From the sequence record OR062947.1: DNA of 64,000 nucleotides. One strand, given 5' to 3'. This DNA comes from Escherichia phage 348Ecol098PP. A program made the translations under genes and the position numbers. Positions 32,057 through 41,568 of the stretch are shown here, in pieces (position 1 is the first letter of the stretch; each line of letters opens with the position of its first letter). The notes under the pieces are model-generated. The model saw only the letters and a program-made list of their open reading frames with translations. It ran no database searches and was not told where the DNA came from.

Positions 32057-32074
32057 GGGAGACCGAAGTCTCCC
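32057..32074 (-). terminator. hairpin, possible weak terminator/attenuator between genes 35 and 36
   Basis: gggagaccgaagtctccc; on the - strand it reads gggagacttcggtctccc followed by atttttg; the same hairpin recurs at 41057 and 58090. Confidence 0.45.
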
Positions 32075-38389: not shown

Positions 38390-38705
38390 TATTAAACCGG
38401 TTGATGAGGCCGGTTTATCTGAACAAGAATTAGCAGTAAAACACGATAAAGATGATATCGCTAAATTGCTTGACCGACAAGAAAACGGATTCATTATAGA
38501 ATCCATGGTTGAACAATTTGGTATGTCTTATTTAGAAGCAACAACTGCGTTCTTGGAAGAAAATTCTATTCCAGAAACACAATTTGCTAAATTTATTCCT
38601 ACAGGAATTGTTGAAAAAATTACAAGCGAAGCAATTGACGAAAACATGCTTCGCCCGTCAGTTGCTCGTGGTGAAAAAACTAATACGTTAGATTTCTTAT
38701 TATGA
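38367..38705 (+). CDS. 33: late transcription co-activator gp33
   Basis: 112 aa ORF between dsbA and the 59/32 region. Confidence 0.75.
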   Translation: MTQFSLSDIKPVDEAGLSEQELAVKHDKDDIAKLLDRQENGFIIESMVEQFGMSYLEATTAFLEENSIPETQFAKFIPTGIVEKITSEAIDENMLRPSVARGEKTNTLDFLL

Positions 38706-39385
38706 AATACGTTGTGTATAAAACTACCAATAAAATAAATGGTAAAATTTATATAGGCGTACACAAAAAACATAAAGAGAAAGATTGGTATATTGGATCA
38801 GGCCGCGCTATATTAGCGGCCAAAGCTAAATATGGACTAAAAAATTTTTATACCGAAATTCTTTATGAATATGATAATGACAAGGACGCCTATAAAAAAG
38901 AAGCAGAATTGGTTAATGAAGATTTTGTTTTGCGAACTGATACTTATAACTTAGTTCCCGGTGGTAAAGGTGGCCCTGGTAAAAAACAAAGTGATGAAGC
39001 TAAAAGGGCTATTTCACTTTCTAAATTAGGTAAACCTAGATCTGAAGAGACTAAGGCTAAAGTATCTAAAACCAGATTAGAAAGAAAAATACCATCCCCT
39101 AATAAGGGTAAGAAACTATCTGAAGCTCATAAATTAGCTTTGAGTAAAGTCCGAAAAGGGCGAAAAACGAATAAGCCGATGCCTGATTCAACCAAAGAAG
39201 CTCTTAGAATAGCAAATTCAAAGCCGCATTCTAAAGAAAGAACTATTAAAAAACAAAAACCTATAATTATTGATGGTATAAAATACTCATCATGCACAGA
39301 AGTTTCGGATGTTTTTAATATTTCTGCATCTCTAGTTACGTATAGACTTAAATCTTCAAAATGGCCTGGATGGAACTATGATTAA
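38702..39385 (+). CDS. free-standing GIY-YIG homing endonuclease (Seg-like)
   Basis: 227 aa; N-terminal YKTTNKINGKIYIGV GIY-YIG module; basic C-terminal DNA-binding tail; inserted between 33 and 59. Confidence 0.75.
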   Translation: MKYVVYKTTNKINGKIYIGVHKKHKEKDWYIGSGRAILAAKAKYGLKNFYTEILYEYDNDKDAYKKEAELVNEDFVLRTDTYNLVPGGKGGPGKKQSDEAKRAISLSKLGKPRSEETKAKVSKTRLERKIPSPNKGKKLSEAHKLALSKVRKGRKTNKPMPDSTKEALRIANSKPHSKERTIKKQKPIIIDGIKYSSCTEVSDVFNISASLVTYRLKSSKWPGWNYD

Positions 39386-40031
39386 AATACGCATGCCTCC
39401 TGACGGAGAACGTTATATTAACGGTAAATCAGTATATAAACTATACTTGATGTGCAAAAACCACTTTGGTGGTCGGTATGACGTAATCAAATATAACTGG
39501 TGCATGCGTGTTTCGGATAATGCGTATCAAAAACGTCGAGATAAATATTTCTTTGAAAAACTAGCAGAGAAATATAAATTGAAGGAACTCACCTTGATAT
39601 TCATAAGCAACTTAGTTGCTAACCAAGACGCATGGATTGGTGAGATATCAGACGCTGATGCATTAGTTTTCTATAGGGAATATATTGGACGACTAAAACA
39701 AGCTAAAGAGACGTTTGCTGAAGACGTACGTAACATCTACTATTTCAGTAAGAAAGTTGAAGTTAGTGCGCTTCAAGAGATATTTGATTATAATAATAAA
39801 GTTCAGTCGAGCTACATATTTAAATTGCTACAAAGCAATATAATTTCATTTGAAACTTTCTTATTGTTGGACTCGTTTTTGAATATTATAGATAAGCACG
39901 ACGAACTCACCGATAACTTAGTCTGGCAAAATTATTCTACCAAATTAAAGGCATATCGAAAAATACTTCAAATCGATAGAAATGCTGCTAAGAAATTGTT
40001 CATAGAAACAATCAAATCATGTAAGTATTAA
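39378..40031 (+). CDS. 59: helicase loader gp59
   Basis: 217 aa; MIK.RMP..GERYI.GKSVYKLYLM.K.H..G.YDVIKYNWCMRVSD.AYQKRRDKYFF.KL.EKYKLKEL matches remembered T4 gp59. Confidence 0.9.
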   Translation: MIKIRMPPDGERYINGKSVYKLYLMCKNHFGGRYDVIKYNWCMRVSDNAYQKRRDKYFFEKLAEKYKLKELTLIFISNLVANQDAWIGEISDADALVFYREYIGRLKQAKETFAEDVRNIYYFSKKVEVSALQEIFDYNNKVQSSYIFKLLQSNIISFETFLLLDSFLNIIDKHDELTDNLVWQNYSTKLKAYRKILQIDRNAAKKLFIETIKSCKY

Positions 40032-40060
40032 GCTTTATTTCTTGTGTGTTAAAATTACTT

Positions 40061-40068
40061 TATAAATA
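40061..40068 (+). promoter_or_regulatory. T4 late promoter TATAAATA upstream of gene 32
   Basis: exact TATAAATA at 40061-40068. Confidence 0.5.
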
Positions 40069-40078
40069 AAACATACCA

Positions 40079-40147
40079 GCTACGAGGTATAAGTGTCGTA
40101 GCAACCAACTGTAAATAAATTAAATAATCTAAATAAAGGTAAATATA
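40079..40147 (+). promoter_or_regulatory. gene 32 mRNA leader: hairpin plus A/U-rich unstructured tract (candidate gp32 translational operator)
   Basis: gctacga...tcgtagc stem (40079-40102) followed by an about 45-nt A/U-rich tract up to the AUG. Confidence 0.55.
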
Positions 40148-41050
40148 ATGTTTAAACGTAAATCTACTGCTGACCTCGCTGCTCAAATGGCTAAACTGAA
40201 TGGTAACAAAGGTTTCTCTTCAGAAGATAAAGGCGAATGGAAGCTGAAGCTAGATGCATCCGGTAATGGTCAAGCGGTAATTCGTTTCTTGCCAGCAAAA
40301 ACTGATGATGCACTACCATTTGCAATTCTTGTTAACCACGGTTTCAAGAAAAATGGTAAATGGTATATTGAAAATTGCTCTTCTACACACGGTGATTATG
40401 ACTCTTGTCCTGTATGTCAGTACATTAGTAAAAATGACCTGTACAATACTAACAAAAATGAATATTCTCAACTGAAACGTAAAACTTCTTATTGGGCTAA
40501 TATTCTGGTTGTTAAAGACCCTCAAGCTCCAGATAACGAAGGTAAAGTATTTAAATATCGTTTCGGTAAAAAGATTTGGGACAAAATCAATGCAATGATT
40601 GCTGTTGATACCGAAATGGGTGAAACTCCAGTTGATGTTACTTGTCCGTTTGAAGGTGCCAACTTCGTTCTGAAAGCTAAGCAGGTTTCTGGTTTTAGCA
40701 ACTATGACGAATCTAAATTCTTGGGTCAATCTGAAATTCCTCGTATTAATGACGAAGCATTCCAGAAAGAACTATATGACCAGATGGTAGATCTTACTAC
40801 TTTGACGGCTAAAGACCAGTTCAAATCCTTTGAAAAATTAAATGAATCTTTCGCTAAGGTTCTTGGTACTGCCGCTCTTGGTGGTGCAGCAGCCGCAGCA
40901 GCTTCTGTTGCAGATAAAGTTGCTTCTGACCTTGACGATTTTGATAAAGACATGGAAGCCTTTAGTTCTGCAAAAACTGAAGATGACTTCATGAGCTCTA
41001 CCTCATCCTCTGATGATGGTGACCTCGATGACCTGTTAGCTGGTCTATAA
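40148..41050 (+). CDS. 32: single-stranded DNA-binding protein gp32
   Basis: 300 aa; [16 protein letters not shown]...FLP; acidic C-terminal tail. Confidence 0.92.
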
Positions 41051-41056
41051 TAAATT

Positions 41057-41078
41057 GGGAGACTTCGGTCTCCCTTTT
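41057..41078 (+). terminator. rho-independent terminator
   Basis: gggagacttcggtctccc hairpin followed by tttt. Confidence 0.8.
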
Positions 41079-41105
41079 GAGTATCTGTAAATTGCCGAAA
41101 AAGTT

Positions 41106-41136
41106 GTTTACTTCTTCCCTGGATGTGTTAGTATAG
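41106..41136 (+). promoter_or_regulatory. early promoter cassette (family C)
   Basis: gtttacttcttccctggatgtgttagtatagacctatcaa. Confidence 0.5.
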
Positions 41137-41163
41137 ACCTATCAACAACATGAGGAAATCAAA

Positions 41164-41568
41164 ATGGAAATCGGAAAATCTTATATCATTAACCCTTTAT
41201 TTAAAGATGACTTTGTTCAAGAAGCACCACACAATAACGCTAAGATGTTAAAATTGATTGAACTCCACGGGCCTAGTTTTGTTGTAAACGGAATGGAACC
41301 TGATTATGATAGCGATACGTCAAACGTAGTAAGTGTAACTATGGAAGATGGTACTGTATGTTCTGCCGGTGGTGAAATTGAAACTTATTTTGAGATTTAT
41401 CCTGACGAGTTCAAATACTTTATTGAGTACTTTACTGAGGTAACTTTAGAAAAGCCTCAACCTACTAACGAAGGTATAACTTTAGGTGTAACAAAAATCC
41501 ATTGTATCGTAGATGAAACCAACGTCGACGAAATCATCAAACTTTTGCAAAAAACTTTTAAAAAGTAG
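41164..41568 (+). CDS. hypothetical protein
   Basis: 134 aa; catgaggaa SD. Confidence 0.5.
   Translation: MEIGKSYIINPLFKDDFVQEAPHNNAKMLKLIELHGPSFVVNGMEPDYDSDTSNVVSVTMEDGTVCSAGGEIETYFEIYPDEFKYFIEYFTEVTLEKPQPTNEGITLGVTKIHCIVDETNVDEIIKLLQKTFKK

Follow-up and report, generated by a model that had tools for sequence, protein, structure and literature searches.

The gene 32 leader of an RB69-like Escherichia phage: a pseudoknot and A/U-rich tract identical to the RB69 translational operator

Positions 40073-40147 of the 64,000-nt stretch of Escherichia phage 348Ecol098PP DNA analysed here (the window) very probably represent the translational operator of gene 32 mRNA, composed of a pseudoknot and an A/U-rich tract and serving autorepression by gp32. 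The assignment is based on what was established in this work: the anatomy of the element and its uniqueness in statistical terms, the covariation seen in its two helices, and its identity with the RB69 operator. An autoregulatory operator for gp32 had been proposed at this site in a preliminary description of the sequence. The proposal is upheld by the gp32 ORF located downstream, by the covarying helices and by a leader identical to the RB69 operator. The element as such is already known: it is the gene 32 autoregulatory pseudoknot operator characterised in RB69, and since it is base-for-base identical to that experimentally characterised version, it is an ordinary one. The result matters for annotation only. 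The 116-nt region between genes 59 and 32 should be labelled as gene 32 translational operator plus promoters, with the operator starting at 40073 and not at 40079.

Locus and anatomy of the leader

The source phage is an RB69-like, T4-type phage (Mosigvirus). Its 59-32 segment displays 98-99% identity to phages ECO26.1 3-1 and JK45, 92% to RB69 and about 78% to T4-type phages. The ORF upstream of the leader (39378-40031) encodes helicase loader gp59 and the ORF downstream (40148-41050) encodes gp32 (Pfam PF08804, E 4.5e-61; best PDB matches 8GME, 2ATQ and 1GPC), hence the element sits in the 116-nt 59-32 intergenic region. According to BLASTP, this gp32 is 92% identical to RB69 gp32 and 83% identical to T4 gp32, and its residues 1-60 do not differ from RB69. 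The cognate gp32 conserves KRKST (residues 3-7) and H64/C77/C87/C90, in T4 gp32 the N-terminal segment for cooperativity and the Zn ligands, respectively, and so retains both that segment and the Zn-binding core. In total, 21 of 278 aligned residues differ from RB69 gp32, clustered at 190-240, and the C-terminal tail differs further. The C-terminal domain has been implicated in modulation of gp32 RNA specificity (PMC535899).

The leader and gene 32 comprise the following features, numbered within the window:

40073-40077, + strand: 5' strand of stem 1 (S1), AUACC, complementary to 40086-90; three of its five pairs covary
40078, + strand: loop 1, a single A crossing stem 2, invariant in 8/8 distinct compact pseudoknots
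40079-40085, + strand: 5' strand of stem 2 (S2), GCUACGA, the hairpin arm of the preliminary description; four of its seven pairs covary and 100% of cells pair
40086-40090, + strand: 3' strand of stem 1, GGUAU, abutting stem 2 with zero junction nucleotides
40091-40095, + strand: loop 2, AAGUG, 5 nt here and 3-7 nt long across lineages
40096-40102, + strand: 3' strand of stem 2, UCGUAGC, ending at -46
40103-40147, + strand: unstructured A/U-rich tract that contains the Shine-Dalgarno (SD) sequence; 84% A+U, six UAAA (one of them UUAAA)
40107-40112, + strand: AACUGU motif, 3-4 nt 3' of the pseudoknot, within a 41-nt Mosigvirus-invariant block
40127-40140, + strand: small hairpin AUCU-AAAUAA-AGGU that sequesters the SD GG (40138-39), present in MFE and centroid folds
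40148-41050, + strand: gene 32 (gp32, 300 aa); PF08804, PDB matches 8GME/1GPC

The site was originally described as a 7-bp stem with a 10-nt loop, placed about 45-70 nt upstream of the AUG. The stem is perfect (GCTACGA 40079-40085 and TCGTAGC 40096-40102, 10 nt between them; GGTATAAGTG) and lies at -69 to -46 with respect to the gene 32 ATG at 40148, as claimed. The loop is not a true loop: its 5' half, GGTAT at 40086-90, is complementary to ATACC at 40073-77, and the element is therefore an H-type pseudoknot spanning 40073-40102 (-75 to -46), with an S1 of 5 bp and an S2 of 7 bp, rather than a plain hairpin. Accordingly, the reported range was correct for stem 2 and wrong in starting at 40079, as the element begins at 40073, outside it. 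The function assigned to a leader pseudoknot was likewise right, and the anatomy was incomplete because stem 2 alone was described and the second helix was not located.

The full pseudoknot architecture occurs just once when both strands of the 64-kb window are searched (0.11 expected). Evaluated separately, the helices have energies of -8.6 (S2) and -4.1 kcal/mol (S1), comparable to those of T4 (-7.3/-3.1) and T2 (-7.0/-6.1). Statistically, nothing sets the 7-bp hairpin apart when taken by itself; perfect 7-bp stems closing loops of 3-12 nt number 97 in the window, compared with 60 +/- 9 expected from Markov-1 simulations. Nor is the leader singled out by nested-structure thermodynamics alone. 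The MFE of the 101-nt leader is no better than that of shuffled sequences (z = -1.17), and the nested MFE fold recovers stem 2 and the SD mini-hairpin without reaching significance. A long-range AAACAU/AUGUUU pairing from the same fold was discarded, as it is broken in RB69 by an A-to-T difference at 40071. Scanning of 39000-41500 with Rfam 15 (E up to 10) yielded noise (snoRNA and CRISPR models) and nothing over 40032-40147. Rfam apparently has no model of this element, and the absent match therefore says nothing against the operator assignment.

The long unstructured A/U-rich stretch claimed downstream of the stem was confirmed at 40103-40147, where mean P(unpaired) is 0.75. The A+T content of this 45-nt tract (84%, compared with 62% as the window background) is attained in just 48 of 63,955 45-nt segments, and the tract is the sole + strand occurrence in the window of at least six TAAA per 45 nt. 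The UAAA/UUAAA repeats adjoin the pseudoknot on its 3' side and reach over SD and AUG. The mini-hairpin at 40127-40140 matches the RB69 U(-8)..A(-21) hairpin, which was proposed from DEPC/T1 insensitivity (PMC535899); T4 is devoid of such a hairpin. Some variation was observed in this part of the leader: in NRG-P0074 and VIPECOMC06 an additional A immediately precedes the SD GG and there are several changes between GG and AUG, and AV112 has changes at GGU and further upstream in the A/U tract.

Conservation and covariation in related phages

Loci of gp32 were collected from IMG/VR and GenBank phages, and 31 leaders were aligned with MAFFT, blind to structure. Compact pseudoknot geometry was found in 14 of the 31 leaders as opposed to 4.8% of shuffled ones, and in these 14 the pseudoknot ends 34-47 nt before the AUG. 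Its carriers are T4-like and T2-like phages, RB69, Klebsiella phage Marfa, Serratia phage CHI14, Escherichia phage EcS1 and Erwinia phage Cronus. Comparison of gene 32 leaders, recommended in the preliminary description, revealed that pairing of both helices is kept by compensatory changes with respect to T4, T2 and four other lineages.

To quantify covariation, eight distinct pseudoknot sequences were aligned without flanks (alignment A3). Standard pairs are formed by 96.8% of cells in this alignment, whose sequences were picked by a pairing rule and had already been put in matching columns by the unbiased MAFFT alignment; with partners slid by 1-3 columns the value falls to 23-50%. Double-sided changes occur in 7 of 12 pairs (4/7 in S2, 3/5 in S1), and the observed covariation score was reached by 0/500 shuffles. 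Variants include G·U pairs, namely in S1 of T4 and in S2 of Marfa and CHI14. Since each of these would be an A·C mismatch on the other strand, the structure is one of sense-strand RNA, not of DNA.

A covariance model built from A3 has a single match in the window, 40073-40105 (42 bits, E 2.7e-8). Over 281 kb of gp32 loci it gave 12 matches, all 12 immediately upstream of gp32, and on the distant gp32 loci L033-L082 (about 40% identity) it gave none. At closer range, the 41 nt at 40072-40112 are invariant in six Mosigviruses and the intergenic flanks on both sides vary, which shows purifying selection on the leader element.

A relaxed search retrieved an expanded pseudoknot in Acinetobacter phage Lazarus (L088, about 110-161), and in Yersinia phage phiR1-RT (L091) and locus L030, ending at -43. 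It has an S1 of 8 bp, an L1 of 5 nt, an S2 of 7 bp, a 4-nt junction and an L2 of 9-13 nt. S2 starts with GGUGUA (GGUGUAC/GUACAUC or GGUGUAG/CUACAUC) and its closing pair covaries, and the S1 sequences are unrelated to one another. The score of this pseudoknot was matched by 2-3 of 150 shuffles. These findings suggest a second structural class of operator, and they suggest a greater age and plasticity of the operator fold than would be gathered from T4, T2 and RB69 alone.

Among the 6-mers of gene 32 leaders, the AACUGU motif is the most widespread, occurring in 26 of the 28 distinct ones. The window as a whole shows no enrichment of it (43 found, 45 expected). Non-coding copies are located at -13 to -45 in many Straboviridae genera, in leaders with or without the pseudoknot, including Acinetobacter phage Lazarus and Aeromonas phages Aes012 and Aeh1. 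In T4, T2, RB69, Cronus and Lazarus the motif directly follows 'ACC' 3' of the pseudoknot. Besides the window, leaders containing it are L002, L013, L017, L021-L028, L088, L090 and L093. It is absent from Krischvirus, Pseudotevenvirus, KVP40-like, Pseudomonas and Ac42 leaders and from distant marine loci; none of the distant gp32 loci L033-L082 has a leader copy, and the Ac42 leader has neither pseudoknot nor AACUGU. No description of AACUGU in connection with gene 32 was found in the searchable literature, older subscription papers lying outside this search.

An arrangement of 3-4 tandem AACUGU repeats as an operator replacing the pseudoknot was rejected, as the copies belong to the conserved 3'-terminal part of gene 59 (…QLFIKTVKNCKY, then stop). 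In Karam-, Moon- and Gelderlandvirus-type phages, 10-20 nt separate the end of gene 59 from gene 32, and the extra copies are thus conserved codons of the gp59 C-terminus, confounded by coding. For the same reason the raw count of 54 vs 1 is inflated. On the other hand, non-coding copies persist where leaders are otherwise unalignable, with or without the pseudoknot. On this ground we tentatively propose, while regarding it as rather doubtful, that AACUGU may be an undescribed sequence-specific determinant of gene 32 post-transcriptional control, beyond 'pseudoknot plus UAAA tract'. It could be a nucleation contact for gp32, or a site for another factor or a nuclease.

Autocontrol of gp32 in diverse T4-related phages was considered in a 2010 review to need more thorough study (PMC3014915). 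In our survey, the compact pseudoknot with rich covariation is present in at least six genus-level lineages and the expanded variant in two more, the pseudoknot is absent in many others, and the AACUGU motif is conserved. These comparative by-products are of modest value and together offer concrete targets for studying how gp32 recognises its own message.

Transcription signals, neighbouring genes and alternative explanations

Three further elements bear on transcription of gene 32:

40031-40055, + strand: putative MotA-type middle promoter; aGCTTTA at 40031-37, 12-nt spacer, TAAAAT -10 element at 40050-55
40061-40068, + strand: T4-type late promoter box TATAAATA, exact match, invariant in six Mosigviruses
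41057-41074, + strand: intrinsic terminator GGGAGAC-UUCG-GUCUCCC followed by UUUU, found by terminator scan, ending the gene 32 transcript

The short segment from the gene 59 stop to the pseudoknot apparently accommodates two promoters (40031-40068). The MotA-like box overlaps the gene 59 stop codon and has one mismatch to the MotA-box consensus TGCTTtA. The box and a TAnnnT -10 element are kept in the six Mosigviruses with a spacer of varying length, and 40031-55 is a probable MotA-type middle promoter feeding gene 32, from which transcripts would start at about 40062. The late box TATAAATA is no more frequent in the window than expected (7 vs 7.45) and was dropped as statistical evidence; its conserved position alone supports a promoter. 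It also occurs 5' of the pseudoknot in T2-like, Marfa, CHI14, EcS1 and Cronus leaders. The spacing between box and pseudoknot is tight in CHI14, EcS1 and Cronus and amounts to 17-22 nt in T2-like phages and Marfa.

With the box numbered -13 to -6 (PMC2988020), late transcripts are predicted to start at about 40074, the 5' edge of the pseudoknot. Owing to this tight spacing, late mRNAs would begin at the pseudoknot itself, resembling the T4 species that arises from RNase E processing at -71 (PMC3014915). If they do start at 40074, S1 would lose its first pair and be left with 4 bp, as in T4. The 5' flank AUAAAAC, A/U-rich and single-stranded, is at most suggestive of cleavage by RNase E here.

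The 18-nt terminator hairpin with its UUCG tetraloop is present twice in the window in opposite orientations, at 41057-41074 (+), just past the gene 32 stop, and at 32057-32074 (-). The minus-strand copy (about 32.06 kb) adjoins a minus-strand TATAAATA at 32042-49. Past the gene 32 terminator, 41100-41140 contains GTTTAC … TAGTAT/TATAGA, which resembles a T4-type early promoter and precedes an ORF at 41164-41568.

Upstream, a 227-aa GIY-YIG / I-TevI-like homing endonuclease ORF (38702-39385, +; PF20987, PF19835, NUMOD3) sits tightly between gene 33 and gene 59 and overlaps each of them by a few bases. This ORF is present in phage vB_VIPECOMC06 and absent from RB69, NRG-P0074, O157 typing phage 6 and AV112, in which gene 33 overlaps gene 59 directly. 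Its location differs from that of T4 segG, which sits between genes 59 and 32. In the window and in other Mosigvirus records gp59 has 217 aa (654 nt), read from the ATGA overlap with gene 33, whereas RefSeq gene 59 of RB69 (NC_004928, locus L001, 501-1154) is annotated from an internal start, with 528 nt and 175 aa. The length difference is probably an annotation start-site discrepancy.

Explanations other than an operator have to be weighed against these data. The structure might mainly be a stabiliser at the mRNA 5' terminus, or a processing barrier against 5'-end-dependent decay, and not primarily a repressor site. In favour of this, T4 gene 32 mRNAs are unusually stable, and RNase E cleaves all of them at -71, which is 4 nt 5' of the pseudoknot (PMC3014915). 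Besides, the predicted late +1 at about 40074, set by TATAAATA, falls on the first bases of S1, and the tight spacing is shared by CHI14, EcS1 and Cronus. However, deletion of leader elements in RB69 raised gp32 synthesis about 4-fold, the opposite of what loss of a stabiliser would cause, and gp32 footprints cover the structure (PMC535899). As deletion increases expression, a 5'-protective role cannot replace the repressor role, and we regard the stabiliser as the primary function as unlikely. A protective effect is plausible as an added function, compatible with the operator model.

Lying 48 nt after the gene 59 stop, the element could be imagined to end transcription of gene 59 as an intrinsic terminator or attenuator, yet no U-run follows the stem (AACCAACUGUAAAU is found instead), and the scan that detected the real terminator at 41057 reported none at 40079-40110. 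Termination is thereby excluded. Moreover, T4 gene 32 needs read-through from upstream promoters (PMC3014915). A DNA palindrome acting as homing-endonuclease or recombination target could be imagined, given that seg-type endonuclease genes insert nearby (T4 segG between genes 59 and 32, the GIY-YIG ORF upstream of gene 59 here). It is excluded by the G·U pairs, which, like the strand-specific covariation, are meaningless for duplex DNA. Terminator and palindrome together have a very slight probability. Still smaller, practically negligible, is that of a functionless chance hairpin in an AT-rich intergenic region, even though 7-bp hairpins are common (97 vs about 60 expected), the MFE z-score is -1.17 and no Rfam family matches. 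Both helices covary across eight distinct sequences and the 41-nt block is invariant amid variable flanks, which excludes chance. Further against it, the architecture is unique in the window and the sequence is identical to an RNA that was experimentally probed.

Proposed mechanism and comparison with known operators

According to the operator model, gp32 would be both the repressor and the product of the regulated gene. As long as ssDNA is available, gp32 would be titrated onto DNA and gene 32 would be translated. When free gp32 rises, it would nucleate at the pseudoknot, with S2 presumably stacked on S1, and at its 3' edge. It would then spread cooperatively in 3' direction along the unstructured tract, which would serve as a lattice for cooperative binding. 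About six gp32 monomers, each occupying about 7 nt, may coat the 45-nt tract. The coated tract would occlude the ribosome-binding site and initiation would be blocked.

Experimental data are available for an RNA identical to the window leader, and they comprise single-strandedness of -1 to -45, structure in the segment of the pseudoknot, footprints of gp32 and derepression by about 4-fold upon leader deletion (PMC535899). Specific binding and repression at the window leader may be assumed by analogy with this sequence-identical RB69 RNA, for which they were shown with RB69 and T4 gp32 (PMC535899). The gp32 of the window phage, 92% identical to that of RB69, probably acts on the leader in an equivalent manner.

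Ribosomal protein S15 is not described as acting by cooperative coating of an unstructured tract, unlike gp32 in the above model. Its E. coli mRNA, rpsO, is nevertheless a functional analogue, being autogenously repressed through a translational operator with a pseudoknot (noted in PMC3014915), and is unrelated in sequence to the gene 32 operator.

Operators of T4, T2 and RB69 are reviewed in PMC3014915. As far as it is presented in PMC535899 and PMC3014915, the T4 operator (-67 to -40; McPheeters 1988 and Shamoo 1993, cited in both) consists of a pseudoknot of about 28 nt beginning at -67 and more than 40 unstructured nt with UUAAA/UAAA repeats, and from nucleation at the pseudoknot gp32 extends cooperatively across the ribosome-binding site. 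The window element shares with it the topology, single-A loop 1, 7-bp S2, zero junction, AAGUG loop 2, ACC-AACUGU after the pseudoknot and UAAA/UUAAA repeats up to the SD. The T4 pseudoknot differs in having a 4-bp S1 with a G·U pair (UGCC/GGUA), whose 5' strand overlaps the segG coding region, whereas the window phage has five Watson-Crick pairs. In S2, one compensatory pair is U-A in T4 and C-G in the window phage. The T4 element is 28 nt long and ends at -40, that of the window phage is 30 nt long and ends at -46.

Stems of the T2/T6 pseudoknot are coaxially stacked in the NMR structure 2TPK (Holland et al. 1999, as cited in PMC3014915). This pseudoknot and that of the window have in common a 5-bp S1, a 1-nt loop 1 and a 7-bp S2. 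They differ in S1 sequence (UGACC/GGUCA in T2/T6, AUACC/GGUAU in the window phage) and in loop 2, which has 7 and 5 nt, respectively.

The closest relative is the RB69 operator, characterised by Borjac-Natour, Petrov & Karam in 2004 (PMC535899), to which the window is identical from -76 to +12. Pseudoknot, AACC-AACUGU, A/U tract, SD mini-hairpin, start codon and 59-32 context are all shared, and four substitutions are found further upstream (40041-44 and 40071). In the RB69 leader, A(-1) to A(-45) are hypersensitive to DMS/DEPC and insensitive to RNase V1, and the putative pseudoknot segment behaves in the opposite way. The strong footprint extends from U(-14) to G(-61) with RB69 gp32 and from C(-42) to G(-61) with T4 gp32; purified gp32 represses translation in vitro from this leader, and deletion of leader elements increases gp32 synthesis about 4-fold (PMC535899). 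The landmarks of that study can be located in the window: A-45 is A40103, C-42 is C40106, U-20 is U40128, G-10 is G40138 and U-8 is U40140. G-61, at which the strong gp32 footprint on the identical RNA of RB69 ends on the 5' side, is G40087 in the 3' strand of stem 1. Given the identity to RB69 and the presence of every landmark on the expected base, the element is a sequence-identical copy of the characterised operator.
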